64,000 bases of DNA. It comes from a virus (taxonomy: Duplodnaviria; Caudoviricetes). Shown here piece after piece: positions 279 to 15,329 of this stretch; position 1 is the stretch's first letter, and each line of letters starts with the position of its first letter. The position numbers were made by a program, and so were the translations under genes. Location: the IMG/VR virus record IMGVR_UViG_3300020577_008668, positions 15,616-79,615 of that record. One strand, given 5' to 3'. Under the pieces are notes generated by a model that made no database searches, had not been told where the DNA came from, and saw nothing but the letters and a program-made list of their open reading frames with translations.

Positions 279-939
279 GACCGACCGCCGAACAGATGGG
301 GCGAATGAACTGGGCTGTGCGTCCGTCTGCAACCAATCGAACCGAAAGAGATCAACCATGGTCCGACCATCCCGACTGCGCTTCCCCTGTCATCGGTGAC
401 TTTCTCCGCTCATGGAACGACGGTCTCGACGGTGACACCCGGCAGCAGTTGAAGCGGTACATTCCCCGCCTGGTCGGCTCGAAGGGCACTACAGCGCAGG
501 AAGATCATCGAGCGTGGATGGCGGTCGACTGGTACAGGCCCCGGCGTGGTTGCGTCTGGCTGGGATGGTCGATCAAGCGAATCTGCTCGCCGGGTTGGAC
601 GTAGTCTCTGTTGAGACGTATGTGTCGATTGAACCGACGTTGCGGGCGGTACGACGCTACGCTGTGACTACTTCGTCCGCTGTAGTGGACGAAGTCGTGG
701 ACGCTGCTTCGGACGCTGCTGTCTCCGCTGCTGTACCTGCTGCTTTGAATGCCGCTTCGTCCGCTGGAGTGCCCGCTGCTCGGAATGCTGCAACGGTCGC
801 TGCTTTGGACGCTGCTTGTTTCGCTACCGTGTCCGCTGGTGAGTCACCGTCCGCTTTGCAACCCACCGTGATCGAACTGCAAGCATCCGCCCATGATCTT
901 ATTGACCGAATGTTTGCCGTCACCGAGGCCGCAGCGTGA
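275..939 (+). pseudogene. frameshifted, N-terminally chimeric paralogue of the 2153-2968 Ala-repeat gene
   Basis: 354-396 is identical to 2262-2304 and 491-523 is identical to 2399-2431. An 8-nt segment (tacaggcc, ~533-540) replaces 18 nt of the intact copy, splitting the gene into ORFs 263-604 and 514-939. The C-terminus QPTVIELQASAHDLIDRMFAVTE matches APTVTELQTSAHDLIDRMLAVTE. Confidence 0.8.
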
Positions 940-992
940 CCCGCCCCGTTCTCTACATCGCCGGTCACCCCACATGCGGAGTCGACCGATGA
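936..992 (+). pseudogene. truncated gene start MTRPVLYIAG (copy 1)
   Basis: 936-964 matches 2968-2996 (2 mismatches after the first base); the frame stops after 18 aa. Confidence 0.6.
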
Positions 993-1171
993 CCGCCTAC
1001 CTGATCCCCGAAATCTGGTGCGACAACTGTGGGACAAGAGCTCAAGCAGACGACGAGTGCACGACACGGGGCCTGCGTCAGCACTTGAGCGAGGACCGAG
1101 AATGGGTGCGTCGCCGAATCTCCGGGGAACTACATGACATCTGCGGACGTTGCGTCGAGGGCGACCAATGA
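989..1171 (+). CDS. small Cys-rich putative Zn-binding protein
   Basis: ATG overlaps the upstream stop; WCDNC...W...DICGRC pattern; high-GC codons. Confidence 0.65.
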   Translation: MTAYLIPEIWCDNCGTRAQADDECTTRGLRQHLSEDREWVRRRISGELHDICGRCVEGDQ

Positions 1172-1419
1172 GCGTTGAGCAACGCACCGCCGTCCGTATC
1201 ACCTGCGACGCACACCGTTGCCCTGCCACATGCCCACCCGTCGGACACGGTCCCGAATGGTGGGTGCAGAACGACCAGGCGGAATCGGAAGCGATCGCTG
1301 AGATGGTCGCAACCGGGTCCGGGTGGCAGGTGCAACCTCTCGGCCCGTGGTCGGTGCTACATTTCTGCCCCGATCATTCATCACACATCAATGACCAAGA
1401 AGAAGGAGAACAGTTATGA
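1168..1419 (+). CDS. small Cys/His putative Zn-binding protein
   Basis: ITCDAHRC...GW...HFCPDH; ATGA overlaps at both ends. Confidence 0.65.
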   Translation: MSVEQRTAVRITCDAHRCPATCPPVGHGPEWWVQNDQAESEAIAEMVATGSGWQVQPLGPWSVLHFCPDHSSHINDQEEGEQL

Positions 1420-1724
1420 CCGAGTCAATCATGGTGGACGGCGTCAAGTTCGTCCCGGAGGCCGTCACGTCAAGCGGGGTGCGCATCGTTGTCTTGCAAC
1501 GGGGCTGGGTCGTCGTCGGCGCCTACTCCGAGGATGGCGACGAGGTGCTGGTGACATCGGCGAAGGTGATCCGCCGCTGGGGGACCACCCAGGGGATCGG
1601 GGAACTGGTTGATGGTCCGACCAAGGACACTGTGTTGGATCTGGCTGGGACGGTGCGGGCGCACCGGTTGGGCGTGTTGTTCACGCTGGATTGTGATGGC
1701 GATGCCTGGCGGGATCACCTGTGA
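1416..1724 (+). CDS. conserved phage protein (DUF6948-like by recall)
   Basis: RIVVLQRGWVVVG...AKVIRRWGTTQGIGEL; RBS gaaggaga upstream; followed by a GYG-repeat ORF as is typical of this family. Confidence 0.7.
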   Translation: MTESIMVDGVKFVPEAVTSSGVRIVVLQRGWVVVGAYSEDGDEVLVTSAKVIRRWGTTQGIGELVDGPTKDTVLDLAGTVRAHRLGVLFTLDCDGDAWRDHL

Positions 1725-1963
1725 TGGTGGCCGTGATGTCGTTCGGTGAGGACGCTCACGCTGCTATCGGCATCGGCTACGGCCACGGCTACGGCTACGG
1801 CACCGGCTACGGTGACGGCTACGGCGACGGCTACGGCCGCGGGGATGGCTACGGCTACGGCCACGGCTACGGCTACGGCACCGGCTACGGTGACGGCTAC
1901 GGCTACGGCTACGGCCACGGCTACGGCTACGGCTACGGCTACGGCTCCGGTTGCGGGTGGTGA
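1721..1963 (+). CDS. Gly-Tyr repeat (GYGDGYG) low-complexity protein
   Basis: 80-aa ORF, mostly GY/GD/GH dipeptides; coupled to the upstream gene. Confidence 0.65.
   Translation: MMVAVMSFGEDAHAAIGIGYGHGYGYGTGYGDGYGDGYGRGDGYGYGHGYGYGTGYGDGYGYGYGHGYGYGYGYGSGCGW
1775..1945 (+). repeat. tandem ggctac-based hexamer repeat
   Basis: direct reading; encodes (GY)n. Confidence 0.95.
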
Positions 1964-2115
1964 CCGTGATGTTGTTCGGTGAGGACGCTCACGCTGCTAT
2001 CGGCATCGGTGATGGCTACGGCTACGGCTACGGTGATGTCGCTCCGAGAAACCAACCCATGACCGCACCTGTGTTCCAACATTTCTGCCCCGACTATCAC
2101 ACCGAGGAACCCTGA
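1960..2115 (+). pseudogene. chimeric fragment: shortened GYG gene fused to a copy of the 1168-1419 C-terminus
   Basis: 1974-2009 is identical to 1741-1776 (36 nt); 2079-2093 is identical to 1359-1373 (acatttctgccccga, HFCPD). Confidence 0.65.
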
Positions 2116-2152
2116 TGACTGACCGACCTTTGTCCCCGAAGGAGAACGATAA

Positions 2153-2968
2153 GTGACCACCCGAACTCTTGATCTTGACACGCTTGTCCTCGCCGTTGGA
2201 GCCCATTCAGCGACGAAAGACGACATGTGTGTCATGGAGGCTGTAGCGTTCATCGCTGGCGAACCATGGTCCGACCATCCCGACTGCGCTTCCCCTGTCA
2301 TCGGAGCGTTCCTCCGCACCTGGAACGACTCACTTCCCGACGCCGACCGTCAGACGTTGAAGCAGTACATCCCGCGCCTCGTCGGCTCGAAGGGCACCAC
2401 AGCGCAGGAAGATCATCGAGCGTGGATGGCGTTGGATTGGTTGGTGCGGGTGCACACTCCGGCGTGGTTGCGGTTGGCGGGTTTGGTCGATCAGGCGGAT
2501 CTGCTCGCTGGTCTCGCTGAGGTGGATGCGGGGACGTGTCCGTCGATCAAGCCGATGTTGGAAGCGGTGCGCATGGACGCTGCCGCCGCTTGGGCCGTCG
2601 TTCGGGCCGTCGCTTGGGCCGTCGCTCGGGACGCCGCTCGGGATGCCGCTTGGGACGCCGCTCGGGACGCCGCTCGGGACGCCGCTCGGGACGCCGCTCG
2701 GGATGCCGCTTGGGACGCCGCTGGGGACGCCGCTTGGGCCGTCGCTGGGGATGCCGCTCGGGGCGCCGCTCGGGGCGCCGCTCGGGATGCCGCTGGGGCC
2801 GTCGCTTGGGCCGTCGCTGGGGATGCCGCTCGGGGCGCCGCTCGGGATGCCGCTCGGGACGCCGCTCGGGATGCCGCTCGGGACGCCCTCGCTCCCACCG
2901 TGACCGAACTCCAAACCTCAGCGCATGACCTCATCGACCGGATGCTCGCCGTCACCGAAACAGCATAA
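2153..2968 (+). CDS. actinophage protein with (DAAR/DAAW)n repeat, function unknown
   Basis: intact 271-aa ORF with RBS gaaggaga; MCVMEAVAFIAGEPWSDHPDCASPVI N-domain plus Ala-rich repeat. Confidence 0.8.
   Translation: MTTRTLDLDTLVLAVGAHSATKDDMCVMEAVAFIAGEPWSDHPDCASPVIGAFLRTWNDSLPDADRQTLKQYIPRLVGSKGTTAQEDHRAWMALDWLVRVHTPAWLRLAGLVDQADLLAGLAEVDAGTCPSIKPMLEAVRMDAAAAWAVVRAVAWAVARDAARDAAWDAARDAARDAARDAARDAAWDAAGDAAWAVAGDAARGAARGAARDAAGAVAWAVAGDAARGAARDAARDAARDAARDALAPTVTELQTSAHDLIDRMLAVTETA
2575..2886 (+). repeat. 12-nt tandem coding repeat (gacgccgctcgg variants)
   Basis: direct reading; in-frame 4-aa units. Confidence 0.95.
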
Positions 2969-3081
2969 TGACCCGCCCTGTCCTCTACATCGCCGGGCCG
3001 TACACCGCGCCGGACCCATCACAACGTGCACAAGGCGGTGATGTTCGCTTCCCACTCAATGGGGAATTATGGTCTAGGTAA
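2968..3081 (+). pseudogene. truncated/frameshifted gene start MTRPVLYIAGPYTAPDP (copy 2; DUF4406/nucleoside deoxyribosyltransferase-like start)
   Basis: YIAGPY motif; the continuation HNVHKAVMFA lies in another frame; sequence turns AT-richer at ~3050. Confidence 0.55.
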
Positions 3082-3090
3082 CAAAAGCGG

Positions 3091-3480
3091 ATGTTATCAT
3101 CCGCTATGGATTTTGACGGGGTTACCCTAACTTGCACACTAGAAACTTGGACTCCAGAAATTTTTTTTAGTAACAGGAAGAAGTGCTATCAACAAGTGAA
3201 ACAGTCTAGGGAAATTTTTGACCATCTACCTCACGACAATAAAGAGGCAGTCCTCGATATGATTAAGCGAGCCCTTTTTCTAGCGGCGGACGAAGTTGAG
3301 CTATGGGTTCCTTCAGCTTTTTCATCCGATAGGATTTCGGATACTTTAGTTGTTCAGTTGAAACTTTCAGCATCTCAAGTCGATGCAGCTATTGCTGATC
3401 GGAAAAAATACACATCTAAACGACTAGCTGAGATAATTGCTGAAGTAGAAGCTGACTTAGACGAGTTTGATGTTTCATGA
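3091..3480 (+). CDS. hypothetical protein
   Basis: 129-aa ORF with ATGA overlap to the resolvase; true start may be 3106. Confidence 0.7.
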   Translation: MLSSAMDFDGVTLTCTLETWTPEIFFSNRKKCYQQVKQSREIFDHLPHDNKEAVLDMIKRALFLAADEVELWVPSAFSSDRISDTLVVQLKLSASQVDAAIADRKKYTSKRLAEIIAEVEADLDEFDVS

Positions 3481-3869
3481 AACCCTCAACGGCTAAGGCG
3501 AAAGGGCGTGAATGTGAAAAGGCTTGGGTTAATTTCCTGAAAGAGAATGGTGTTCCTAACGCCGAACGACGACGACTCAACGGAGTCGAGGATCGTGGAG
3601 ACATTTCGGGCTGGAATTCATCGGAGGCTCAGGAACATGGTGGATGGCGGATTTGTTCCGAGGTGAAATCGGGTGGAGTAATTAAAACAGCTGAATGGTT
3701 GAGAGAGCTAAAGGCAGAGATCACAAACGATAATTCTGACTCTGGTCATATCGTTGTGCGTCCCAAGGGGAAGCCTCGGGTTGAGGATTGGTTCGTGATC
3801 ATGGACGTTCTCGGCTTTATGGATTTAATGAGTCGAGCCGGTTTCATCCCATGGCAGCCAGATGATTGA
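3477..3869 (+). CDS. Holliday junction resolvase (PD-(D/E)XK, actinophage type)
   Basis: AKAKGRECEK...AERRRLNGVEDRGDI...EVK motif. Confidence 0.8.
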   Translation: MKPSTAKAKGRECEKAWVNFLKENGVPNAERRRLNGVEDRGDISGWNSSEAQEHGGWRICSEVKSGGVIKTAEWLRELKAEITNDNSDSGHIVVRPKGKPRVEDWFVIMDVLGFMDLMSRAGFIPWQPDD

Positions 3870-4095
3870 CGCATTTGGTCAGGAGCTTTATGAGGGTGAT
3901 AAAGTTGTAGCAATTGCTACTATGAAATCTACGCAGACCTTGTATAAGGGAACTGTCGTAGGTTTTTCTGGTTCTTGTGTTAATGTGAGAATGGATGAGA
4001 TGTCTAACTGTGATACTTTTTGGTTTGATATCTATCAGCCTGAACAGGGAGAAGAAAAGCGCATCTGCGTGTCTCATAGATTGGCAAAGATATGA
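3862..4095 (+). CDS. hypothetical protein (SH3-like pattern)
   Basis: IDAFGQELYEGDKVV...YKGTVVGF. Confidence 0.65.
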   Translation: MIDAFGQELYEGDKVVAIATMKSTQTLYKGTVVGFSGSCVNVRMDEMSNCDTFWFDIYQPEQGEEKRICVSHRLAKI

Positions 4096-4811
4096 AGCTC
4101 GTTGTAGGGTGTCCTGTGTCAAATCGGAACTGGATTCTTCCTGAGTGGAATCAGCATGTTCTTTCATCTGTGTTTGATCTGGTAGAGAGAGATAGTAGAG
4201 ACTGGGACCTAGAGTACGCTTTTGTTGTTCCATCTGGAGACACTGAAACGCTTTCTGTTTTATCTTCTTTTGATACCTCCACCTTTACTTTGACGAGAGA
4301 TGAGCCTGAAGTTGCTGTTCGTCGTCGTTGGGGGCCTGATCGTTATCAGAATATGGTAGAATCAAGAAATGCTCTTTTGGGGCTTGTTAGGGAACTTTCT
4401 CCTGATTTTTTCCTTTCACTGGATTCAGATATTCTTTTGCATCCTACTGCCATTTCAAAAGCTTTAGAATTATTCAGGGATGGGGTTTGGGCAGTAGGAT
4501 TAGCAACGTACTTAACTCCCCGAGGGAATACTGTTCCTAATATGGGAAGTTGGTTGGATCAATCCTATATTAGATACTCTCGAAAAGATTACCCTGAAGC
4601 TACAACCTGTGATATTCTGATGGCAGCTAAGTTAATGAAACCTGAAGCATACCAAGTCGATTACGAGTATCACCGCTCAGGAGAAGACTTGGGTTGGTCT
4701 AGGGCTCTGAAAAGGGCAGGTGGTAAAGTTATGTGGGATGGTAGGGTGAAGAATAAGCATGTGATGGAGCCTGAGCATCTCTCTCAGGTAGATGAGAGGG
4801 TCGGGTTCTGA
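4092..4811 (+). CDS. GT-A fold glycosyltransferase
   Basis: KLVVGCPV start, RNALL, FFLSLDSDILL (DxD), late GEDLGW. Confidence 0.8.
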   Translation: MKLVVGCPVSNRNWILPEWNQHVLSSVFDLVERDSRDWDLEYAFVVPSGDTETLSVLSSFDTSTFTLTRDEPEVAVRRRWGPDRYQNMVESRNALLGLVRELSPDFFLSLDSDILLHPTAISKALELFRDGVWAVGLATYLTPRGNTVPNMGSWLDQSYIRYSRKDYPEATTCDILMAAKLMKPEAYQVDYEYHRSGEDLGWSRALKRAGGKVMWDGRVKNKHVMEPEHLSQVDERVGF

Positions 4812-5581
4812 TGGATTTACAACTTATAGTGGTGAACTATCACACCTACCCTCTGCTTCAGCAGTTTATTGATTCTTATGAGGAGTTTAAGCCATCCATT
4901 AATTCAAGCCTGTTGATCTATGATGTAGAGTCTACTCCCGAGATTCATGATATCCGCAAATATGGGAATGAATTGATTAGAGATGCAAAAAATTGCGGGT
5001 ACGCTAGGGCCTGTAACTATGGTACCTTCTTAAGTGGTAGGGCTAGAAACTTTGCTTTCTTCAATGCTGATACTCGATTCAATAATGAGAGTTGTGTGGA
5101 TTATTGTGTGGACTTTCTGGATAGTAATGATAATGTGGCTGTTGTTGGGCCTTTGCAGTATTCCTCCAGCGGGAAGACGACTCATGGTGGGATATTTGGT
5201 AGCAACGAGAAACCGGCCTTTCGGCACTGGAACAAACCTGTCTCTGACTCTGTAAGAGATAATAGGGAGGCTGTGACTGTCTCAGGGTCAGCCTATTTTG
5301 TAAAGGGGATGGTGTGGAGAGAAATGAGGAATTGTCCGGTATTTCGGCATGCTTTTCCTTCTGCTATAGGGGGTTTCCCTGACCTTCCTCACGGGTATGA
5401 AGAAACATTGTTTTCTTACCACAGCAGAGCACATGGTTACGAAGTTTGGTATTTGGGTAAAGCAGAAATGGAGCATGACTGGCATCAGTCCTCTCCGGTG
5501 GGGTCTCAGTCAGATAAGTTCAAAGAGGGACGAGAGCGGTTTAGATCGTTCTGTAGAGCACATGGGATAGAATGTGATTGA
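4811..5581 (+). CDS. GT2 glycosyltransferase (WbbL-like)
   Basis: IVVNYHT, NCGYARACN, FAFFNADT, VSGSA, YEET. Confidence 0.85.
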   Translation: MDLQLIVVNYHTYPLLQQFIDSYEEFKPSINSSLLIYDVESTPEIHDIRKYGNELIRDAKNCGYARACNYGTFLSGRARNFAFFNADTRFNNESCVDYCVDFLDSNDNVAVVGPLQYSSSGKTTHGGIFGSNEKPAFRHWNKPVSDSVRDNREAVTVSGSAYFVKGMVWREMRNCPVFRHAFPSAIGGFPDLPHGYEETLFSYHSRAHGYEVWYLGKAEMEHDWHQSSPVGSQSDKFKEGRERFRSFCRAHGIECD

Positions 5582-6218
5582 TGTAGTTATTGCCTGGAAC
5601 CCTCGAACCACTGATCCTTGGAGATGTCGCTCCAGGGAATTTGTGCTTTCTATGTGGGAGTCTTACGGGTACACTGTGATATGGGGACTGGATGATTCTG
5701 AGCCCTTTAACATTTCTAAGGCTAAGAATAACGGGGTTCGTCAAGCTTCATCTAGTAAAGTTGTCATAGCTGACGCTGATGTTGTCATTAGCAAGCAGCA
5801 GGTTGAAGAGGCTCTTGCTAAAGAGCATTGGGTTATTCCGTACGAAACTTATTTCAACTTAACTCAAGCCCATACGAAAGAATTTCTTGACGGCGTTCGG
5901 GAACTAGGTGATTGCCAGTGGGATCATCGCATACTTTCTTGGGCTGGCATGATGGTTGTTGAAAGGCAAGCCTACTGGGATGTTGGTGGGCATGATGAAA
6001 ACTTTAGTGGATGGGGATGGGAAGATGTAGCCTTGCGGTTGGCTCTAGATAATCTTTACTTTCAGCATGAAAGGGTAGCTGGGGGTATTTATCATCTGTG
6101 GCATCCTGTTTCTGAAGTTGAGACTTTCGGATCAGATGATTGTGCTCGAAACAAAGCTCTCTTTAAAAAAGAGTATAAGGATAGGTATAACTGGAGAGAT
6201 GAGAGGTTAAAGTGGTAA
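5574..6218 (+). CDS. glycosyltransferase with GT7 C-terminal (galactosyltransferase-like) domain
   Basis: FNISKAKNNG, VIADAD, VGGHDENFSGWGWED, HLWH. Confidence 0.85.
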   Translation: MIDVVIAWNPRTTDPWRCRSREFVLSMWESYGYTVIWGLDDSEPFNISKAKNNGVRQASSSKVVIADADVVISKQQVEEALAKEHWVIPYETYFNLTQAHTKEFLDGVRELGDCQWDHRILSWAGMMVVERQAYWDVGGHDENFSGWGWEDVALRLALDNLYFQHERVAGGIYHLWHPVSEVETFGSDDCARNKALFKKEYKDRYNWRDERLKW

Positions 6219-7030
6219 TCTATCTTGACAAATTTGTTGGTCGGTTGGGCAATCAGCTTTTCCAAATAGCTTCCACGGTTGGAATTGCCCGACTGAGGGG
6301 GCTTGAGCCGCGTTTTCCTGAATGGGATTATGCTCCAGTTTTCAATATTCCTGAAGAGTTCTTTGAGTCGTTCGATGATGAGCTTAGAATGAATGTTCTA
6401 GATTGCGCTAGTGAGTTGGATGAACGTGAACGAGTTTACTTACAGAACGTACAGTACTTTGATCATGTAAGAGAAGAGATCCTTCAAATGTTTTCACCAT
6501 CTTCTGCTGCTGAAGATATTATTGATCCATCTGTGAGAACTTTGCGGGAAATTTCACAAACAGGATCAGTTCTTTCAATTCATGTCCGTCGAGGTGACAT
6601 TCTTTCTCATCCTGAGTATCATCCTGTTCGTAGCATCCAGTATTATGCTGATGCTCTCGAAGAGGTTGGTTCTTATGACTCGGTTGCTGTTTTTTCTGAT
6701 GACGTAGAATGGTGTGCTAAAGTTCTTGCTCCTAAGCTCGGTCTGAGGGTGGATTTTTATGGGTCAGGGATTTCTCGTTCCCCTATCCCCTCTCAGTATG
6801 AGAAGGATGGGCCAGTTGATTGGCAGGATTTATTTTTAATGAAAGCCTGTTCTTCTCATGTCATTTCTAATTCCACTTACGCTTGGTGGGGGGCGTATCT
6901 TTCAGAGGATAAGCATCCGATCTATCCCTCTAACTGGTTTGGTCGTGAGCTACAAAATCAGGCTCATCCTGAGTTGCTTTTTCCCGATTTGTGGATTCAG
7001 GTGCATGATGACACGCAGGGAGGCATTTGA
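6212..7030 (+). CDS. GT11 alpha-1,2-fucosyltransferase-like
   Basis: GRLGNQLFQ, SIHVRRGD, VFSDDVEWC, ISNSTYAWWGAYL; GTG start. Confidence 0.92.
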   Translation: MVIYLDKFVGRLGNQLFQIASTVGIARLRGLEPRFPEWDYAPVFNIPEEFFESFDDELRMNVLDCASELDERERVYLQNVQYFDHVREEILQMFSPSSAAEDIIDPSVRTLREISQTGSVLSIHVRRGDILSHPEYHPVRSIQYYADALEEVGSYDSVAVFSDDVEWCAKVLAPKLGLRVDFYGSGISRSPIPSQYEKDGPVDWQDLFLMKACSSHVISNSTYAWWGAYLSEDKHPIYPSNWFGRELQNQAHPELLFPDLWIQVHDDTQGGI

Positions 7031-7656
7031 TGCTGTTCGAATGGGGTGATGTTACCAAATATTTTCAAAAGACAATTACGGGTGTTCTTCATGTAGGAGC
7101 CCATTTAGCTGAAGAAGCTCCTCTTTACGAGGACTTGGGGGTTTCTAATGTTTGGTGGGTTGAAGGTAATCCTTCGGTCATGGTTAAGCTGGATCACATT
7201 TTAAGAAGCTATCCTTCTCATCGGTACGTCCAAGCTCTCGTCTTTGAAGAAGATGGGGTTGAGCTAGATTTCCATGTGACGAATATTGACGGAATGAGTT
7301 CTTCTATTTACGAATTCGGGACTCATACTCAGTTTAGTCCAGACATTGAATTTGTTCAGCATTTCAAGCTTTTAACGAAGACCATTGATACAATTGTTGA
7401 GGAAAATAACATAGAGGACATCAACCTTATCAACTTGGATCTCCAAGGGGCGGAGTTGCCTGCTCTTAAGGGTGCTTCAAAACTTCTCGAAGGAGTTGAT
7501 TACATTTTGACTGAGGTTAATAAAGCTGAGGTTTATAAGGGGTGCACTAAGATTCAGGAACTTGGTGAGTTCTTGGAGGATTTCGTTAGAGTTGAGACTC
7601 ATTGGGTAGCTAACCAAGGGTGGGGCGACGCTCTATTTGTTAGGCGGGAGTCGTGA
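7027..7656 (+). CDS. FkbM-family SAM methyltransferase
   Basis: GVLHVGAHLAEE, SSSI, LINLDLQGAEL, TEVN. Confidence 0.88.
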   Translation: MMLFEWGDVTKYFQKTITGVLHVGAHLAEEAPLYEDLGVSNVWWVEGNPSVMVKLDHILRSYPSHRYVQALVFEEDGVELDFHVTNIDGMSSSIYEFGTHTQFSPDIEFVQHFKLLTKTIDTIVEENNIEDINLINLDLQGAELPALKGASKLLEGVDYILTEVNKAEVYKGCTKIQELGEFLEDFVRVETHWVANQGWGDALFVRRES

Positions 7657-8393
7657 CTAACATTCATGTTTTGATCCCTTCATATAATTGTGCTCAGTGG
7701 GTTGAGCGGGCTTTAGATTCTGTAGAGGATCAGTCTTTCCAGCCTAAAAGTGTCCTACTGATAGATGATTGTTCAGACGAGCCAAACTATTCGCAGTTAG
7801 CTTTACAACAGTGTCAAAATAGAGGGTACTCTTATCTTCGAAATAATGTGAACGAAAAATGTCCTTATAATCTTTGGATGGGAGTGAAAGTCCTCAATCC
7901 AGATCCTGAGGATGTTATTTTCTTACTTGATGGGGATGATTTTCTTCCCGCCCCAGGAACTTTAGCTAGAATAGCTGAGGTGTATGCAGATCCGAATGTG
8001 TGGCTTACGTATGGCAACTATGAGCCGTACCCGGTAAATACTGGTCAGGTAGCTGCTTCTTCCTACGACATAGATGTCATTCAGGAAAGAAATTTTCGTC
8101 AATCAGGGAATTTTTTCAATCATCCAATAACTTTTCGGCGGTTCTTGTTCGACGAGATCAGGGATGAGGACCTGAAAACAAACGATGGTAGATGGTTTCG
8201 TGGAGGTTACGACTTTGCTATAATGATGCCAATGTTAGAGATGTGTGGTCAAGAGCACTTTTGTTTTATCGACGAAGTTTTGTACATCTATAATGCCATC
8301 AACCCTATTTCCGATTCTCATGTCAATGTGAAGTTGATTAATGAAACGGATCAGCTTCGTAAACGCCCTAAGAGGGAAAGGTTGATTAGATGA
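7653..8393 (+). CDS. GT2 glycosyltransferase
   Basis: LIPSYNC, LIDDCS, FLLDGDDFL, DFAIMMPMLE. Confidence 0.88.
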   Translation: MTNIHVLIPSYNCAQWVERALDSVEDQSFQPKSVLLIDDCSDEPNYSQLALQQCQNRGYSYLRNNVNEKCPYNLWMGVKVLNPDPEDVIFLLDGDDFLPAPGTLARIAEVYADPNVWLTYGNYEPYPVNTGQVAASSYDIDVIQERNFRQSGNFFNHPITFRRFLFDEIRDEDLKTNDGRWFRGGYDFAIMMPMLEMCGQEHFCFIDEVLYIYNAINPISDSHVNVKLINETDQLRKRPKRERLIR

Positions 8394-9100
8394 TCTCATT
8401 CACTCAACATTGTCAGGCAGAAAGTCCGATGAACGTCTTCTCTCAAAATGGGGAAGATGGGGTTATTCAGGCTATTTTTGACTTGATTAAGCCTGAGACT
8501 ATGACATGCATGGAATTCGGAGCCGCCGACGGGTTCTTTTGCTCAAATACAGCTTATCTTTGGAGTAGGTGTGGGTGGGAGGCTACTTTAGTAGAGTCAG
8601 ATAATGTCCTTTTTAAGGGGCTAGAACAAGCAACTAAGCGAAGTGATAAAGTCAGATCATTTCATGACATGGTTACTAACCCAGACGATTTCTGCCCAGA
8701 AGTTTTGGATCTGATCTCCATAGATGTAGATGGGGAAGATTTTAACATTTGGGAACGATCAAAGGTTCGTCATAGGGTTGTTGTTATTGAGCATAATCCT
8801 ACTTTCCCTCCTCATGTGGAGATGCACGCCGGACAGTGGGTCGGGGCATCAGCAGCTTCCTTGGTGCGATTGGGTGAGTTGAAGGGGTATAGTTTCCTTA
8901 TGGCAACTAAAACAAACTGCTTCTTTGTGAGAAACGAAGATGCTGAAGTGTTTGACCGGTTTGACTGTTCCTTAAGAAATAACTTCGAGTCCTCTAGTCT
9001 TAACTATGTTGTCACTGATTATCATGGAAACTTTGACGTAGTGGGTTCCCTCCCCTATGGGATGAACTGGAAAGTAGAGTTTGGAATGCATTATGAGTGA
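8390..9100 (+). CDS. FkbM-like SAM methyltransferase
   Basis: FSQNGEDGVI, MEFGAADG, ISIDVDGEDFNIW, VIEHN. Confidence 0.82.
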   Translation: MISFTQHCQAESPMNVFSQNGEDGVIQAIFDLIKPETMTCMEFGAADGFFCSNTAYLWSRCGWEATLVESDNVLFKGLEQATKRSDKVRSFHDMVTNPDDFCPEVLDLISIDVDGEDFNIWERSKVRHRVVVIEHNPTFPPHVEMHAGQWVGASAASLVRLGELKGYSFLMATKTNCFFVRNEDAEVFDRFDCSLRNNFESSSLNYVVTDYHGNFDVVGSLPYGMNWKVEFGMHYE

Positions 9101-9710
9101 GTTCCGTGCTGACTTTTTGGCCTGGGTAGATGCTGAGTTAGAGACACCAAAGGCGTCTGTCCCCGAAGAAGTGAAGTGGGGACTTCTTCTTGAATTGGCC
9201 GAAGAGTACCATTTGCGGACTTTAATCGAAACTGGCACAGCTGTCGGGGACACTATCCTTCATATTCAAAATCACTTCGAAGAAATCCATTCTTTTGAAA
9301 TCATGGAAACCTACTATGAGGTTGCTGCTCGGAACACGGAAGGCCTTCTTCACGTTACCTTGTACAATTCGTCGTCAGCTTCGTCGGAATTTAGGGAGCT
9401 AGTGAATAAGCAGCCTGATGCTTGCTTAATCTACTTGGACGCTCATTACTCAGGTGAGGGAACGGGGAAAGACCTTACTCTTATTACTCCAGACGTTCCC
9501 ATTCGCCAGGAACTTGACGTGATCCTTCAGTCGAATGTTGATCATGTTATTGTTATTGATGATGCTAGGTGTTTTAAGGGGGAGGCTTTTTACACTGATG
9601 AGTATTTGGGGTACCCTTCACGCAGCGAAATTCAGGAGCAGGTGGCTGAGTTTTATGATGTTGCTCATGTAGCAGATGCTTTTGTTCTTCACCCGAAAGG
9701 ATGGGATTGA
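9093..9710 (+). CDS. class I SAM methyltransferase-like protein
   Basis: LIETGT, SFEI, IYLDAHYSG, IVIDDAR. Confidence 0.78.
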   Translation: MSEFRADFLAWVDAELETPKASVPEEVKWGLLLELAEEYHLRTLIETGTAVGDTILHIQNHFEEIHSFEIMETYYEVAARNTEGLLHVTLYNSSSASSEFRELVNKQPDACLIYLDAHYSGEGTGKDLTLITPDVPIRQELDVILQSNVDHVIVIDDARCFKGEAFYTDEYLGYPSRSEIQEQVAEFYDVAHVADAFVLHPKGWD

Positions 9711-9712
9711 GA

Positions 9713-10672
9713 ATGACGACTGTAGCAGTAAGTGGTGGTGGTGGGTTCATCGCAGGTCATTTAATTAAGAGACTTTTAGAAGAGGGTTTTGATGTAGTTA
9801 CCGCAGACATTAAACCCCTAGATGAGTGGCACCAGATTTTTGAGGGGGTTCCCTCCTTAAGTTCTTTTGATTTATCTGTCACTGAAAATGCTGAAAGTTT
9901 TCTAGATTTCGACGTGGATCAGGTTTATCATTTAGCCGCTGACATGGGTGGCATGGGTTTCATTAGTCAACATGAGGTTGAAACTGTTCATAGTTTTGAT
10001 ATAACTTCGAGACTTTTAAAAGCGACTGACGGACAAAGGTTCTTTTTTTCTAGTAGTGCTTGTACTTATCCTGAATATAAGCAGCTAACCTCTGAAGAGG
10101 TTTCTCTTAAAGAATCTGACGCTTATCCGGCTGATTGCGATACTTCGTATGGGTGGGAAAAATTATATGGAGAACAGGCTTTAGCTGCTTATCAGCGTGC
10201 TGATCTATTGGAAACTCGGGTAGCTCGGTTTCATAACATTTTTGGACCTCAGGGAACTTGGGACGGTGGGCGAGAAAAGGCTCCAGCTGCTATTTGCCGG
10301 AAGGTTGCTACAGCTTTAAAAACGGGTATTCATGAGATTGAGATTTGGGGGGACGGGGAGCAGACTCGTAGCTTCTTGTATGTGGATGAATGTGTTGAGG
10401 GTATTCGTCGCATTATGGATTCGGATTTTTCAGAGCCTCTGAATCTTGGATCGGATGAGTGTGTTTCTATTAATCAGCTTGTTTCAATGGTTGAGGAAAT
10501 CGCTGGGGTGAGCTTAAGCCGAATCTACAATCTTGATGCACCCCAAGGTGTGCGCGGGCGGAATTCAAACAATACTTTGATTAAAGAAGTTCTTGGTTGG
10601 GCTCCGTCAGCAAAATTGTATGATGGACTAGAAAGAACGTATGCATGGGTTTACGACCAAGTTTCAGTGTAA
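9713..10672 (+). CDS. NAD-dependent epimerase, GDP-mannose 3,5-epimerase-like
   Basis: GGGGFIA, HLAADMGGMGFI, SSACTYP, YGWEK (YxxxK), RFHNIFGP, GGREKAPAAICRKV, WGDGEQTRSF, GVRGRNS. Confidence 0.92.
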   Translation: MTTVAVSGGGGFIAGHLIKRLLEEGFDVVTADIKPLDEWHQIFEGVPSLSSFDLSVTENAESFLDFDVDQVYHLAADMGGMGFISQHEVETVHSFDITSRLLKATDGQRFFFSSSACTYPEYKQLTSEEVSLKESDAYPADCDTSYGWEKLYGEQALAAYQRADLLETRVARFHNIFGPQGTWDGGREKAPAAICRKVATALKTGIHEIEIWGDGEQTRSFLYVDECVEGIRRIMDSDFSEPLNLGSDECVSINQLVSMVEEIAGVSLSRIYNLDAPQGVRGRNSNNTLIKEVLGWAPSAKLYDGLERTYAWVYDQVSV

Positions 10673-11250
10673 TCATCGCCACCTATGGAGATCCCTCATG
10701 GAGAACTTTGGCGGAAAGGGCTGCTCGTTCTGTGGAAGAACAGTCAGTCCAGCCAGATAGTTTGATTCTATCACATGCTGATACTCTTCATGAGGCTAGG
10801 AATAATCCAGTAAAGAGTCTCACTAGCGATTGGCTTGTTTTTCTTGACGCCGATGACCAGTTGGATTACCACTACATTAAGTCAATGAGGGATAGGTCTA
10901 TCGAGATAGGAAATGAGGATTTTTTGATTCAGCCAAGTACGCTTGGCGTCCAAAATGGAATCGAAGATGATTTTCCAACTTTTATTCCTGAACGAGACAT
11001 TCAGCTAGGGAACTGGATGGTTATCGGGACAGCCGTGAAGAGGGATACCTTTTTGCGAGCTGGGGGGTTTCCCGACCTTCCCTGCTGGGAGGATTGGGCT
11101 CTTTGGGCTCAGTGCGTTCATAACGGAGCTAGTACGACTATCGCCCCTGGGGCGGTTTATCGCGTTACGGTCAATAAGAACAGTAGGAATAATCCAACTC
11201 GATCAGATGCTGCTACAGCCGCTCGTTTTGTGAGGAGGATCTTTCAGTGA
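10645..11250 (+). CDS. GT2 glycosyltransferase
   Basis: SVIIATY, ARN, WLVFLDADD, GGFPDLPCWEDW. Confidence 0.87.
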   Translation: MGLRPSFSVIIATYGDPSWRTLAERAARSVEEQSVQPDSLILSHADTLHEARNNPVKSLTSDWLVFLDADDQLDYHYIKSMRDRSIEIGNEDFLIQPSTLGVQNGIEDDFPTFIPERDIQLGNWMVIGTAVKRDTFLRAGGFPDLPCWEDWALWAQCVHNGASTTIAPGAVYRVTVNKNSRNNPTRSDAATAARFVRRIFQ

Positions 11251-12002
11251 AAATCCATGGCCTTTCAGTTATGAGAAATGAAGCAGACAGGTATCTTGCA
11301 GATTGTCTGCAATGGAACCTACCTTTTTTTGATGATTGGTTTATCTGGGACGATAGGTCTACTGATGGGTCTGTTGATCTTGCTGAGACTTTGAGTGAGA
11401 AAATCACTGTAGGTGTTAGGGGGATGACTGATCTTTCTTTTATGGAACATGAAGGCCGGTTTCGTCAGGATGGTTGGGAGGCTTTCGAGAAGGCTATTCG
11501 ACCTGAACATAAGGATGTCGTTGTTGCTGTCGATTTAGATGAGTTTATTACCTTAAAAGAGTCTTGTGATCCAGCTTATGTGAGGTCTGCTTTTGAGTCT
11601 TTTGCAGCGAAGGCAGGTGGGTATGTCTCGCAAGAGATTTCTTTTGTGGAGGTTTTTGATGTAGACCTTAGAGGGGTTCCTTCTTTCCGCACAGATGGGT
11701 TTTGGGGGAATATTTCGGGTAAGCGACTTTTTTCATACAAGGTTGGTGGAAAATTCCCTGATCGACCTATGGGGTGTGGGTCTGCTCCTGAGTATGTTTT
11801 GAAGACGTCCGCCTTAGGTGCTCATCCAGAGTTAAGGTTCCTTCATTATGGTTATGCTGTTTTTGAGGATAGGGTTGACAAGTTTGATCGGTATTCTTCT
11901 TTGGGAAATTCTGGGCATCATTCTTCCCATATTAATAGTATTTTGACTCTTCCCACATTACACCAGTGGGCAGGCCCACATCCCTTTTTGTCTGAAAAGT
12001 AA
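11247..12002 (+). CDS. GT2-like glycosyltransferase
   Basis: GLSVMRNEADRYL, WDDRSTDGS, VAVDLDEF, LHYGY. Confidence 0.82.
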   Translation: MKIHGLSVMRNEADRYLADCLQWNLPFFDDWFIWDDRSTDGSVDLAETLSEKITVGVRGMTDLSFMEHEGRFRQDGWEAFEKAIRPEHKDVVVAVDLDEFITLKESCDPAYVRSAFESFAAKAGGYVSQEISFVEVFDVDLRGVPSFRTDGFWGNISGKRLFSYKVGGKFPDRPMGCGSAPEYVLKTSALGAHPELRFLHYGYAVFEDRVDKFDRYSSLGNSGHHSSHINSILTLPTLHQWAGPHPFLSEK

Positions 12003-12040
12003 AGACGGATGTCGTAGAGTTTTTATGGAGGTTAGTTCAT

Positions 12041-12715
12041 ATGCCAGCTAAGAAAAATCCAGAGTTTGATATCGCTGATCTAATTGAAGACAGCTCTTCT
12101 CTACAAGAGGCTCCTGTTTACGTGGAGGGGCCATCAGGGTCCAGGTATCAGGTGCTTAACCAGTTTGAGGCTGATCACTACAAGTCTTTATCTGAAAGAT
12201 ATCAGGAAGATAACGTTCTAGAGAATGTTTCTGATGTCCAGGAACTCGATCGTATTCTCATGATGGAACTGATGATGTACCGCTGGGGGCTTTGGTTGAT
12301 CCAAGAGAAAGACTATGATGATAAGAGGGTTAATCCTTCTGAGTTGCAAAAAAGCATCTCTTCTTACTCTAAGGAGATTCGTGAGATCAAAAAAGATCTA
12401 GGAATGGATAAGAGCACCAGGGATAAGGATCAAGGTGAATCCCTATCGGGTTACATTCAGAACCTTTTGAGAAGGGCTGAGGAATTTGGTATTTCTCGTA
12501 ATGATCAGGCGGTTGAGGCGATTAATACGCTCATGGAGCTGAGGGGGTACATTACCCTTTACCGAAATTCAAATGATGCTGAACGCAAAGAATTTCACGT
12601 CACATTAGAAGAGATCATTCAGTGGTGCGAAAAGAGTTTCGAAAAATTTGATGAGATTGATGCGGCCTTGAGAGAAAATCAAAAATACTGGATTCACGAC
12701 ATTTCTAAGGTGTGA
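12041..12715 (+). CDS. putative terminase small subunit
   Basis: helical protein two genes upstream of TerL; assignment is positional only. Confidence 0.4.
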   Translation: MPAKKNPEFDIADLIEDSSSLQEAPVYVEGPSGSRYQVLNQFEADHYKSLSERYQEDNVLENVSDVQELDRILMMELMMYRWGLWLIQEKDYDDKRVNPSELQKSISSYSKEIREIKKDLGMDKSTRDKDQGESLSGYIQNLLRRAEEFGISRNDQAVEAINTLMELRGYITLYRNSNDAERKEFHVTLEEIIQWCEKSFEKFDEIDAALRENQKYWIHDISKV

Positions 12716-12719
12716 CGAT

Positions 12720-13250
12720 ATGGCAACACGGAAAAGTTGGGATGATAAATTTGAGGAAATCGCTAAAGAATTTCCCTTGGTTAGAAGGTTTAATTGGGAA
12801 ACAGCTATTCTGAATGATTCAGATTTATTTACTACCTTGCTGGCTGATGTTATAAAGTCCGGGCGTAAGTTAAAAAAACCGGGGAAACGCCCAAGTTTGT
12901 CACGTAAGGACTCTGAGGAGAAATTAAGTCAGCTTGCTGCTGAGGACTTTAGTGAGTTAGAGTTCAAAGATGCTTTCATTGCTCTTTCTTCTAATCGAAG
13001 TATCCGGCACACTGCTAGTAAGACTGGGTTAGATAGAAATATTGTTTACGGCTTATTGAATGGAACCCGACTTCCTTCATTCAGGGAGATGGAGCAAATT
13101 GCTTCTTCGTTCGGGAAAGACCCAAGTTTCTTTTTGGAGTATAGGATTGGGTTTGTTCTTTCTAAAATGAATCAGTTTCTTTTTTCCTCGCCGGAAACAG
13201 CGGCATTTTGGTACAAGAACTTTAAGTCTGATGTGATTACGATTTCATAA
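12720..13250 (+). CDS. XRE-type helix-turn-helix protein
   Basis: SIRHTASKTGLDRNIVYGLLNGTRLPSFREMEQIASSFG. Confidence 0.75.
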   Translation: MATRKSWDDKFEEIAKEFPLVRRFNWETAILNDSDLFTTLLADVIKSGRKLKKPGKRPSLSRKDSEEKLSQLAAEDFSELEFKDAFIALSSNRSIRHTASKTGLDRNIVYGLLNGTRLPSFREMEQIASSFGKDPSFFLEYRIGFVLSKMNQFLFSSPETAAFWYKNFKSDVITIS

Positions 13251-13262
13251 GAGGACGGGTTT

Positions 13263-15329
13263 ATGAGCAAGGTTTTGACTAACTTAACCGAACAGGAACG
13301 GTACTTGGTATCACTGCTCACTGATCGTTCAGGGATAGATCAGTTTGAGTTCATGATTTATGACCCAGCTTTCCGAGAAAATGACGGGCTTTTTAGGGCT
13401 TGGCCTTTTCAGTATCACTGGTTCCGATGTAAGGACCCTTTGGTCATTAGCCAGGGTAGTCGAAGTGCTGGGAAGAGTCAGTCGGCTGTGCTGTCGGCTT
13501 TAGCTTTCCCGTTCACTTATCCTGGACAAGAGATGGTTATTACAGCCCCAGAGTCTGTTCATTTGCAGGCTTTAACTGATAAGATCGAAACAATGTTTGT
13601 GAACAACAGGCTTCCTAGGGACATGCTGGTTAGGGGAGCTGCGGGTATTAAGCATAAGCCTTTTTTGTGTAATTTCAAAAATGGGGCCAGGATCATGGGG
13701 CGGATTCCTCAAAGAGATGGTCGTGGAATGAAGGGTTGCCCTAAGGCCGATACTCCTATTCTGACAGATGCTGGAATTAAGAGAGCTGATGAGGTTCTTG
13801 TTGGAGATAGGGTGGTTAATCATCGGTTGGAGTGGGCTGATGTCACTCAGGTGATTCATGATACGAATACATGCTATGAGGTAACTGATATTGAAGGAAA
13901 CTCTATCACTGTTTCTTGGGAGCATCGTTTTTACGGAGCAGCCAAGGAGGCTTCTGGGTTTTCTGAAATGTACTTTGAGGAAGTAGATTATCTTTTAGAA
14001 GATAATTTTTTTTGGGCTATCCCGGTTGGTGAGTATGAGGGCGACCAAGTTCATGAGGAACGGAATGGGTATTTTCTTGTAGAAGTTGTTTCTGTAAGAG
14101 ATGTTGGTGTTCAGTCTATTACTAATATTATTGTTAAAGATGGGCATAGTGTTCTTACGGGAAACATCATGTCTCACAATGTCCATCCAACAGTTCTTCT
14201 ACTTGATGAGGGACAGGACTATAGTCAGCAGGGTTTCGAGGAGCTTATCGAAACAGTTCTTCAGGGAGTAGAGGGAGCCCAGTGGAAGGTGTTTGGGGTA
14301 ACTCGCGGTGTTCGGGATAAGTTCTATGAGTACACTCATTCTGAGGCTTGGACAGTGTTTCGTCTTCCTGCCATGTTTCGTCCTACGTGGAATGATGCGG
14401 AACGGGCTTTGAAAGAAAGCCAGTATGGTAAACCAGATTCACCTGGCTACCGCAGAAACGTTCTTGGCTTACACGGGGACCAAAATTCGAGCATTTTTGT
14501 CCTGTCGCGATTGATGGCCTGTTGTGACACAAGTCACTCCAGCTTTTACAATGAAAATGAATACTGGAATATCGAATTCGATGATTCTGACGTTGAGGAA
14601 GCTGGTGACATCATTAGTCTAATTGATCCACCAGGCACTCACGCTAAGTATAAGAACTTTTGGATTGGGTCTGACATTGGATGGACTTTAGCCCCGACAG
14701 TGATTGTTATTTTTGCGGAAATTGCAGAAAAAGGGAAGGAACCCTCACTGAAACTATTGGGTCGGATCACTATGCGTCGAATTAAGACGATTGATCAGGC
14801 AGACGTTTTTATACACCTTATCAATACGTATAGACCTTTGGCTTTTGCTATGGACTCTACCGGGGCGGGGTTTCCTCTTCTAGAACTGATCCAGGAAAAG
14901 GCTAGAACTCATGATGAGCTATATAGCGTTGTGGAAAGGATTAAGGGCTATAATTTTAGCGAGAAGGTTGTAGCCGAGTTTGATGATACAGTGGAAATTG
15001 ACGAGGATGATCCTGAGGGATACAAGAGGGCTGAGATTAGAAAGCCAGTTCTAGTTTGGGCTACCGATGTGCTTAGGATGCTTGTTGATGAAAAGAGACT
15101 TATCCTTCCGTGGGATAAGGAGCTTATTGGTGAGTTTCAGGGTCAAACTGTTACTTATGCAAAGGATGCGTTAGATCCATATGGGCGAAAAAGACTCTAC
15201 TCATTTGGTTACTTCCACTCGTTGGATGCATGTCGAATGGCTGCTTTGGCTTTTAAGCAGAACGCTATCGAACAGTTTATTAAGAATCAGGAAGATAGTT
15301 GGGAGGCCCCGTCAGCTATCTTCTTGTAA
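13263..15329 (+). CDS. terL: terminase large subunit with Hint-domain insertion
   Basis: Walker A-like SRSAGKS, Walker B LLLDEGQ, nuclease GSDIG and HSLDA; upstream of portal. Confidence 0.92.
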   Translation: MSKVLTNLTEQERYLVSLLTDRSGIDQFEFMIYDPAFRENDGLFRAWPFQYHWFRCKDPLVISQGSRSAGKSQSAVLSALAFPFTYPGQEMVITAPESVHLQALTDKIETMFVNNRLPRDMLVRGAAGIKHKPFLCNFKNGARIMGRIPQRDGRGMKGCPKADTPILTDAGIKRADEVLVGDRVVNHRLEWADVTQVIHDTNTCYEVTDIEGNSITVSWEHRFYGAAKEASGFSEMYFEEVDYLLEDNFFWAIPVGEYEGDQVHEERNGYFLVEVVSVRDVGVQSITNIIVKDGHSVLTGNIMSHNVHPTVLLLDEGQDYSQQGFEELIETVLQGVEGAQWKVFGVTRGVRDKFYEYTHSEAWTVFRLPAMFRPTWNDAERALKESQYGKPDSPGYRRNVLGLHGDQNSSIFVLSRLMACCDTSHSSFYNENEYWNIEFDDSDVEEAGDIISLIDPPGTHAKYKNFWIGSDIGWTLAPTVIVIFAEIAEKGKEPSLKLLGRITMRRIKTIDQADVFIHLINTYRPLAFAMDSTGAGFPLLELIQEKARTHDELYSVVERIKGYNFSEKVVAEFDDTVEIDEDDPEGYKRAEIRKPVLVWATDVLRMLVDEKRLILPWDKELIGEFQGQTVTYAKDALDPYGRKRLYSFGYFHSLDACRMAALAFKQNAIEQFIKNQEDSWEAPSAIFL
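13737..14180 (+). mobile_element. 148-aa mini-intein/BIL-like Hint domain, no homing endonuclease, +1 residue Val
   Basis: begins CPKADTPILT, block B ITVSWEH, ends VLTGNIMSHN, followed by gtc (Val). Confidence 0.88.

Follow-up and report, generated by a model that had tools for sequence, protein, structure and literature searches.

A glycan-building operon at the head of the packaging genes in a family of uncultured siphoviruses: a candidate virion glycosylation system

INTRODUCTION

What might a phage build with eleven consecutive genes for sugar transfer, methylation and epimerization, placed immediately in front of its packaging genes? The question is raised by a 64,000-nt stretch of DNA (the window), which comprises bases 15616–79615 of a 79.6-kb IMG/VR virus contig (IMGVR_UViG_3300020577_008668) judged ∼67% complete, and in which an operon of glycosyltransferase (GT), methyltransferase (MT) and epimerase genes occupies positions 4092–12002. 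To our knowledge, a few mycobacteriophages are the sole phages for which glycosylation of virions has been demonstrated, and in metagenomic studies phage GTs are as a rule annotated as auxiliary genes for carbon cycling or for the host surface. Here we argue that the most likely targets of the operon are proteins of the phage's own particle, a reading that we hold with about even confidence.

Virion O-glycosylation of mycobacteriophages is described for Che8 (gp108–110), Corndog (gp35–38) and Myrna (PMC12619734, PMC12363180, PMC13313380). According to papers citing Freeman 2023, the subunits of capsid and tail tube bear the glycans at their C-termini (PMC12619734, PMC12363180), and the glycans shield the particle from antibody binding. 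The gp110/gp38 GT is described as essential for capsid glycosylation (PMC12363180).

RESULTS

A contiguous eleven-gene operon heads the packaging genes

Eleven intact open reading frames (ORFs) fill window 4092–12002 on the + strand, on which nearly all genes of the phage contig lie. Neighbouring genes overlap by 1–28 nt at all ten internal junctions, so that the overlapping stop and start codons which a first-pass annotation of the window had reported for most of the operon are present at every junction. The upstream gene 3862–4095 also overlaps the first of the eleven, by 4 nt, and the sole gap, of 38 nt, separates the end of the cluster at 12002 from the packaging gene that begins at 12041. 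The placement originally proposed, directly before the packaging genes, is therefore exact, and the module downstream does contain a terminase, the large subunit (TerL) being a relative of that of the mangrove-soil phage GX15bay.

The GC content of the cluster (0.438) matches that of the structural genes (0.463). In an independent assembly of wastewater run X9, a single 16,985-nt contig spans 2868–19852 with 17 differences; since it covers both the cluster and the packaging genes, their join is not an assembly artefact. At least five studies, with river, aquatic, wastewater and sludge samples, yielded this DNA. The glycan locus is thus real and contiguous. A DNA-level search of a phage collection with window 4000–16000 returned no match.

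Related phages keep a core and exchange a cassette

The conserved 224-residue protein encoded directly after the cluster was used as an anchor. Its 62 database clusters led to 80 related viral loci, on all of which iterated hidden Markov models, built from the cluster proteins of the window, of the related contig L002 and of GX15bay, were mapped. Presence and absence were counted in the 55 loci with at least 6 kb of sequence upstream of the anchor, and in 34 of these between three and 11 glycan genes stand directly before it. The operon is thus a characteristic trait of these siphoviruses, a large and uncultured family.

Two parts of the locus can be told apart. The core consists of GTs A and B (genes starting at 4092 and 4811) together with C (10645) and/or D (11247). 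The remaining seven genes form a cassette, which encodes a GT like gp109 of Che8, a GT11, an FkbM MT, a GT2, an FkbM-like protein, an MT-like protein and a GDP-mannose 3,5-epimerase (GME). The cassette is present in at least 11 other contigs, lying either between B and C, as in the window and L016, or after an A–B–D–C core, as in L018, L019, L022, L024 and L037. It moves as a unit: among related phages the core is retained, and the cassette is exchanged, relocated or lost. The first-pass annotation had called the expected glycan far more complex than those of the mycobacteriophages, which is fair for this phage, although the operon is not unique to it, given how many other contigs carry the same cassette.

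The pace of this exchange is best seen in the pair L020 and L022, whose capsid proteins are 91% identical, whereas their clusters hold 3 and 10 genes, respectively, and the core GTs that they share are 46–69% identical. The locus turns over faster than the capsid genes, and the contrast fits selection acting on an exposed glycan.

Relatives retain full-length ORFs and invariant catalytic motifs. It had been suggested that the proposal would fall if the cluster were a decaying host fragment with pseudogenes in related phages. No such decay was seen, and this explanation was rejected on account of the backbone-like GC content, the intact ORFs, the invariant motifs and the occurrence of the locus in at least five independent studies.

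A lead to the host comes from contigs of 47–49 kb (L121 and L122, also L124 and L125; GC 0.45–0.46) whose portal proteins are 49–52% identical to that of the window. These were binned into two independent Candidatus Saccharibacteria metagenome-assembled genomes, and homologs of core GTs A and C are present on both. Candidatus Saccharibacteria is a lead for the host only, as binning can misplace phage contigs. A search for matching CRISPR spacers in 301 Saccharibacteria-class genomes gave eleven short matches (22–39 nt, 83–100% identity); the five examined had no flanking repeats and were taken as chance.

The enzymes and the sugars that they would handle

Genes were assigned from Pfam, PHROGs and NCBIfam matches, language-model leads from the Atlas, AF2/AlphaFold models and comparison of folds with the PDB. 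Coordinates and the primary basis of each assignment are given in Table 1.

Core GT A was assigned through its structure. An AF2 model built on 23 homologs has the GT-A fold at a pLDDT of 94.9, and S109-D111-D113 (DSD, a D-x-D motif) is invariant among 23 distinct full-length homologs. The best PDB fold for this model is human COLGALT1 (9evj, E 5e-14, TMq 0.70), with LH3 and mimivirus R699 as further neighbours, and there is a faint match to COLGALT1 at the sequence level as well (E 0.025). On the evidence of the model, GT A resembles the collagen-type (hydroxylysine) protein galactosyltransferases, and it is a candidate for the initiating enzyme.

The families of core GTs B, C and D are found in 34, 26 and 37 loci, respectively. 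B and C fall below the Pfam cut-offs themselves, but their L002 homologs pass: that of B for PF13641, at 29.2 bits, and that of C for PF10111, PF00535, PF13632 and PF13641. The B product is also 41.6% identical to a GX15bay gene product labelled ‘glycosyltransferase family 2’.

The first enzyme of the cassette (5574) ties the locus to the actinophages. It carries a DAD motif and matches PF10111 (Glyco_tranf_2_2, 2.3e-8), PF02709 (Glyco_transf_7C, 4.3e-7) and phrog_1721 (7.5e-29); blastp finds Che8 gp109 (2.9e-13) and Corndog gp37 (8e-16), and tblastn matched 331 phage records, 302 of them from Mycobacterium phages. The GT11 that follows scores 71.1 bits for its Pfam family, against a curated cut-off of 23.9, matches phrog_2644 (1.6e-43) and has the HxRRGD motif in the form HVRRGD. 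The count of seven GTs in the cluster (GT2-like, GT7-like and GT11) made in the first-pass annotation is supported by these Pfam and PHROGs matches, by the L002 homologs and by the fold of GT A. The eighth that it had placed among the head–tail genes, a GT4, likewise has clear family matches, and is found at the equivalent place in L002/L003 and L010 and at other genome positions in L037, L041 and L090. Among isolates, the closest homologs of this GT4 all come from Synechococcus myoviruses (ACG-2014f, S-CAM7 and S-CBWM1; 32–38% identical), in the last of which the gene adjoins a tail fibre gene.

Three S-adenosylmethionine (SAM) MTs had also been claimed, and they stand at different strengths. 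The 7027 product is firmly of the FkbM family and a probable sugar O-methyltransferase. The 8390 product scores below the FkbM cut-off, but the nearest Atlas clusters are viral FkbM MTs (0.97), and homologs occur in 7 loci. The 9081 product had no Pfam, PDB or NCBIfam match; its assignment is a lead from Atlas proximity to class I SAM/FkbM MT clusters (0.97) and from the motif LIETGTAVG (E-x-G-x-x-x-G), and its homologs, in 12 loci, lie in every case within the cassette.

The nucleotide-sugar epimerase can be named more closely than was first proposed. Its match to the Arabidopsis GME (2c59) extends over residues 8–321, and the next class, UDP-glucuronate decarboxylase, follows only at 9e-24. 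The segments GGGGFIAGH, S-A-C, YxxxK (YGxEK) and GGREKAPAA align with the Arabidopsis enzyme, and we take them, following work on 2c59, to be the NAD-binding glycine motif, the Ser/Tyr/Lys triad and the Cys and Lys acid/base pair. By sequence this is clearly a GDP-mannose 3,5-epimerase specifically, and it would be expected to act as one.

The identity of the epimerase bears on the GT11. Enzymes of this family normally use GDP-L-fucose. Here, however, 11 of the 12 loci with GT11 also have a true GME, and the contig showed no pathway to GDP-fucose, so the enzyme is probably an L-galactosyl or L-gulosyl transferase, with transfer of L-galactose the probable reaction. As a whole, the operon should build a methylated sugar chain that contains L-galactose.

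Table 1. Genes of the glycan locus, its flanks and the structural candidates; positions are those of the window
Feature	Position	Strand	Basis of assignment
Three small conserved genes opening the operon	3091–3480, 3477–3869, 3862–4095	+	no Pfam family
Core glycosyltransferase A	4092–4811	+	GT-A fold by AF2 model; no Pfam match
Core glycosyltransferase B, GT2-like	4811–5581	+	PF00535 21 bits, below cut-off
Cassette GT, actinophage ‘galactosyltransferase’ family (Che8 gp109 / Corndog gp37)	5574–6218	+	PF10111, PF02709
Cassette GT11 (alpha-1,2-fucosyltransferase family)	6212–7030	+	PF01531 1.2e-19
FkbM-family SAM methyltransferase 1	7027–7656	+	PF05050 1.5e-13; TIGR01444 1.2e-13
Cassette GT2	7653–8393	+	PF00535 2.6e-14; DGDD motif
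FkbM-like methyltransferase 2 (weaker support)	8390–9100	+	PF05050 17.1 bits, below cut-off
Methyltransferase-like protein 3, class I SAM type (a lead)	9081–9710	+	Atlas 0.97, motif
GDP-mannose 3,5-epimerase (GME), SDR family	9701–10672	+	1.4e-89 to Arabidopsis GME 2c59; PF01370 5.6e-33
Core glycosyltransferase C, GT2-like	10645–11250	+	PF00535 22.6 bits, below cut-off; DADD motif
Core glycosyltransferase D (Glyco_tranf_2_4)	11247–12002	+	PF13704 3.8e-7; DLD motif
Conserved 224-residue anchor protein	12041–12715	+	62 database clusters; 85 loci
Helix-turn-helix protein	12720–13250	+	HTH_3 match
Large terminase (TerL) with intein	13263–15329	+	phrog_5909; 41.5% identical to GX15bay terminase
Major capsid protein, candidate acceptor (C-terminal ...VDTSVAP)	19860–20819	+	phrog_16565 5e-16
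GT4 (GT-B) glycosyltransferase, between head–tail and tail genes	23142–24302	+	PF00534 (Glycos_transf_1) 1.1e-18; phrog_3408 7.4e-77
Tail tube protein, two-domain T5 pb6 / P74-26 type, candidate acceptor	25478–26746	+	AF2 and Foldseek

Flanking genes and possible acceptors

Ahead of the cluster, homologs of the three small genes that open the operon, at 3091, 3477 and 3862, occur in 22, 14 and 11 related loci, respectively. In the cluster-negative relatives L029 and L042 the distance from the 3091 homolog to the anchor is within ∼1–1.3 kb and is occupied by small unassigned ORFs. In six relatives a terminator-like hairpin-plus-T and a –10-like element stand immediately before the 3091 homolog, which places the cluster within a unit running into the terminase. 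No convincing terminator precedes 12041. Scans of window 1–20000 for consensus sigma-70 promoters and terminators gave chance levels, and no clear motif emerged when a shared late promoter was sought in the intergenic regions of the contig.

Two structural proteins were considered as acceptors. The position of the capsid gene, after portal and scaffold, is conserved in 47 loci. The tail tube protein, which is 86–87% identical in near relatives, gave an AF2 model with a pLDDT of 74.7 and a low-confidence loop at 254–259. Foldseek matched this model to the P74-26 tail tube (5.6e-9) and also to T5 pb6, so that the fold confirms a tail tube of this two-domain type. Its middle is rich in Ser, Thr and Asn, with 14 Ser/Thr in the 30 residues 209–238 and a flexible loop at ∼240–260. 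This Ser/Thr/Asn-rich, low-confidence loop would make the tail tube a reasonable acceptor. The product of 19267–19845, which ends in an N-x-S/T-like turn, was also considered; this turn did not separate cluster-positive from cluster-negative phages once relatedness was taken into account.

Some further observations concern these proteins. The tail-tube matches in G009 (L104) and G034 (L120) each contain one in-frame TGA or TAA, which could be a sequencing error, recoding or a split gene. A GX15bay ‘epimerase’ (L013 27957–29174) was rejected as a glycan gene: it is a 46% identical homolog of the tail tube, and its GenBank label is probably wrong. A search of the contig for collagen-like repeats gave none; the cluster-negative relative L088 encodes a collagen-repeat protein (8090–8764, 7e-21) just upstream of its anchor.

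The first-pass annotation had also seen several glycan-related domains at the tail tip. This part is weakly supported, as Pfam finds four tandem PKD domains (5.9e-76) in the 1020-residue tail protein encoded at 42601–45663 as its sole match there, and no family in the other large tail proteins (36260, 39586 and 45665).

Machinery expected for other targets

Searches for the machinery of alternative pathways covered the contig and, as family-wide tests, eight cluster-bearing relatives, two of them 96–100% complete. The alternative that survives best is remodelling of the host envelope during lytic infection. The GTs and MTs would then extend or cap a lipid- or wall-linked glycan of the host, with the host supplying the initiating transferase and the flippase, and the phage might gain a block to superinfection, less sticking to debris or altered attachment between cells. 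The gene content invites this explanation, since sets of GT2, GT11 and FkbM enzymes with an epimerase are typical of O-antigen and capsule loci, NCBIfam gives weak matches of the cluster to WcaA, EpsD, TuaG and PglI, and the swapping of the cassette resembles that of serotype loci. Similar phage GTs have been read as surface-attachment or carbohydrate auxiliary genes in metagenomic papers (PMC12647753, PMC6460857).

The membrane components, however, were not found. No cluster protein has a hydrophobic segment, a state compatible with an envelope target too because O-antigen GTs usually lack membrane segments, and the 79.6-kb contig encodes no polytopic membrane protein. PF02397 (Bac_transf), PF00953 (WecA-type) and PF01943 (Wzx) are absent from the contig, the Wzy and ABC families not having been searched by profile, and the first two are absent from the eight relatives as well. 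With no membrane protein in the cluster there is also no GtrA- or GtrB-like one. The earlier statement that no Wzx or transporter is present agrees with these results, and so does the deduction of a soluble, stepwise, transporter-free pathway. Neither the contig nor the relatives contain an integrase or resolvase, which makes lysogenic seroconversion unlikely. Moreover, the cluster heads the late structural operon and does not stand among early or host-takeover genes, and a phage would gain little from eleven envelope enzymes in the last minutes before lysis. We regard envelope remodelling as a serious competitor, though as less likely than virion glycosylation.

A role in carbohydrate metabolism, or in making a soluble product, is improbable. 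The products would in this case be an unattached oligosaccharide or glycoconjugate, or host proteins bearing sugars, through which host metabolism would be redirected or defence hindered, and related GTs of GX15bay have indeed been published as carbon-cycling auxiliary genes by Jin et al. 2019 (PMC6460857). GTs, though, build glycans and do not degrade them, the cluster is closely linked to the structural operon across ∼34 divergent phages, and its serotype-like turnover is hard to square with a metabolic role.

Glycosylation of DNA, in which the oligosaccharide on modified genome bases would be an anti-restriction coat, is very improbable indeed: GT-A enzymes with epimerases do occur beside the terminase in DNA-hypermodification clusters (10.1101/2023.12.21.572611), but the contig has no ThyA-type hydroxymethylase (PF00303), C5 cytosine methyltransferase (PF00145) or ParB_N (PF02195), the relatives have no ThyA-type enzyme either, TET/JBP (PF12851) matched neither contig nor relatives (a soft negative, as the positive-control genomes also gave none), ThyX and dCMP deaminase provide a route to ordinary thymidylate, the two DNA methyltransferases are ordinary N6/N4 enzymes, and seven to eight GTs with three O-methyltransferases exceed any described DNA glycan.

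Other features of the contig

Besides ThyX, dCMP deaminase and the two N6/N4 DNA methyltransferases, the phage encodes a sigma-70-type factor, a class II ribonucleotide reductase with an intein, Pol III alpha, a primase-helicase, RecA and a CHAP lysin. The intein of the reductase (L011 10765–13788, upstream of the window) has a LAGLIDADG domain and is the second in the contig besides that of the terminase. In L010 (10001–11900) the anchor gene is split by ∼1.2 kb (residues 1–134, then 132–224) and the terminase matches fall in three pieces, which suggests an intron, intein or homing-endonuclease insertion unlike that of the window.

GC content rises to 0.60–0.70 at window 1–3000 and 62000–64000 and at contig bases 1–1000, against 0.44–0.47 in the backbone. 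In run X9 the first of these islands is fragmented into many short contigs, unlike the intact 2868–19852 region, and bins 1335–2001 attract enormous read depth from other organisms, due to a Gly-Tyr-type GGCTACGGC repeat. This GC-rich stretch, which immediately precedes the operon, has the look of a foreign island of variable content. In one X9 contig (depth 33) position 5779 is connected to 16127 through nine other letters. Such a form would lack most of the cluster and the terminase; the contig, at 90% likeness, is probably chimeric or unrelated.

DISCUSSION

Virion glycosylation would account for several features of the operon together. The cluster lies within a unit running into the terminase, a placement like that in Che8 and Corndog; the 5574 product shares a family with Che8 gp109 and Corndog gp37, and the modelled fold of GT A matches protein glycosyltransferases; the membrane, initiating and DNA-hydroxymethylation genes expected of rival pathways were not found; and a GT4 stands among the head–tail genes both here and in two near relatives.

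Under this reading the phage would carry an autonomous cytoplasmic pathway for glycan building, expressed with the packaging and structural genes. A conserved core GT would place the first sugar on Ser or Thr of a structural protein. The best candidate for this step is GT A, the fold of which is closest to the protein hydroxylysine galactosyltransferases, and the alternative is the GT4 of the structural module. The acceptor may be the exposed Ser/Thr-rich loop of the tail tube or the capsid C-terminus. Core GTs B, C and D would extend the chain, the cassette would add a hexose of the Che8 gp109 type, a GT2 sugar and, through GT11, L-galactose, and up to three MTs would O-methylate the sugars. 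Given the gene pattern of L020 and L022, near-identical capsids would then carry different glycans in a serotype-like manner.

A number of observations weigh against virion glycosylation. Glycan genes are absent from the site in 21 of the 55 loci, so the cluster is not needed to build a particle; these absences are real, as ten sizeable upstream ORFs of cluster-negative relatives, spot-checked with Pfam, matched no GT family. Neither blastp nor hhalign found a homolog of Che8 gp110 or Corndog gp38 among the 11 cluster proteins and the GT4 (hhalign probability at most 0.9%, with thin profiles of 2–3 sequences). The D-T-S motif at the capsid C-terminus occurs both with and without the cluster among relatives, and differences in the tail-tube loop track phylogeny and not cluster presence. 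Small exact metatranscriptome contigs, from one assembled dataset, fall in the cluster, terminase and portal genes, and may reflect carry-over of DNA. The GTs of O-antigen synthesis are soluble too and could use lipid-linked acceptors and flippases of the host, so the missing transport genes do not exclude a host-surface target. Position taken by itself is weak evidence too, as DNA-hypermodification clusters can likewise lie near the terminase (10.1101/2023.12.21.572611). Finally, diversifying turnover is expected for a host-surface glycan as well.

The fuller form of the proposal is more tentative, and we place it somewhat short of even confidence: that a widespread uncultured siphovirus family of rivers and wastewater, possibly with Candidatus Saccharibacteria as hosts, bears on its capsid or tail tube a coat of methylated oligosaccharide that contains L-galactose, made by a modular locus of core and cassette in which GME feeds GT11 and a GT unrelated to Che8 gp110 initiates on protein. 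Virion glycans would then vary in the manner of serotypes beyond the actinobacteriophages as well.

Phage GT/MT cassettes beside structural genes are already known from actinophages, and a related cluster, that of GX15bay, has been in GenBank since 2019. What is new here is the size of the locus, its design of a core plus a mobile cassette across a large uncultured family, the pairing of GME with GT11, and a core GT set unrelated to the essential enzyme of Che8. If virion glycosylation is correct, glycan coats would be common on environmental phage particles (34 of the 55 relatives here), far more elaborate than those known, with up to 12 enzymes, L-sugars and methyl caps, and as variable as bacterial serotypes between phages with near-identical capsids. 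This would point to an unrecognized selective pressure on phage surfaces in nature, for example from adsorption to debris, grazers, defence lectins or decoys of the host. That the genes keep a fixed place, heading a structural operon, disfavours the carbon-cycling label commonly applied to such genes. The locus would also offer a toolbox of small soluble enzymes for glyco-engineering of therapeutic phages, and the GME–GT11 pairing is a testable bacterial-type route to L-galactosides.

Comparison with known systems

O-antigen and capsule clusters, together with gtrABC modules, share with this locus a content of GT2, GT11 and FkbM enzymes, a nucleotide-sugar epimerase and serotype-like exchange of cassettes. 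They differ in having an initiating phosphoglycosyl transferase, a flippase, a polymerase, a ligase or GtrA/GtrB-type membrane proteins, none of which was found here, although the profiles searched did not include Wzy, and the gtrABC modules differ further in that this is a virulent phage with no integrase found. DNA sugar hypermodification, by the glucosyltransferases of T4 or by GT clusters linked to 5mYOX or ThyS (10.1101/2023.12.21.572611), likewise uses GT-A enzymes, which are in some cases accompanied by a second GT and an epimerase and in some cases lie near the terminase, but the enzymes for precursor bases and the ParB-like partner were not found here, with TET/JBP a soft negative.

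GX15bay (MK557849, PMC6460857) belongs to the same phage family, with 41% identity in TerL, 42% in the capsid and 46% in the tail tube. At the equivalent site it has a seven-gene GT/MT cluster with homologs of core GTs B, C and D, and it differs in lacking GME, GT11 and GT4.

A parallel outside the phages is the chlorovirus PBCV-1, in which the capsid protein Vp54 is glycosylated with the participation of A064R, a protein with two rhamnosyltransferase domains and an MT domain. PBCV-1 is a eukaryotic giant virus with atypical N-linked glycans, and its multidomain enzymes are scattered and not arranged in an operon. It is nevertheless alike in having a virus-encoded, host-independent cytoplasmic set of GT-A enzymes and sugar O-methyltransferases, which puts a methylated hetero-oligosaccharide with L-sugars on the major capsid protein. 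A capsid glycosyltransferase of PBCV-1 is mentioned in 10.1101/2023.12.21.572611.

The precedents for virion glycosylation are Che8 and Corndog. The present lineage differs from them in its 45% GC, its origin in rivers and wastewater and its host lead outside the Actinobacteria. It has 11 + 1 genes against three to four, a conserved core of four GTs with no relationship to those of the actinophages, and its own putative nucleotide-sugar supply in the GME, which would feed GT11. A gp110/gp38 counterpart is missing, and for Che8 gp108, the C-terminal part of which corresponds to Corndog gp35, the best hhalign probability was 12.7%, to the 10645–11250 product, and blastp gave an E of 0.018. The likeness lies in the arrangement and in one enzyme. 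In Che8, gp108–110 are at the right genome end, adjoining the terminase across cos, and in Corndog gp35–38 follow gp32 at a distance of two genes and adjoin the protease gp39 downstream. In these phages, as here, soluble phage-encoded GTs stand on the same strand beside packaging or head genes, in some phages with MTs; the genes are dispensable and variable among related phages; and one GT family, that of 5574, gp109 and gp37, is shared.

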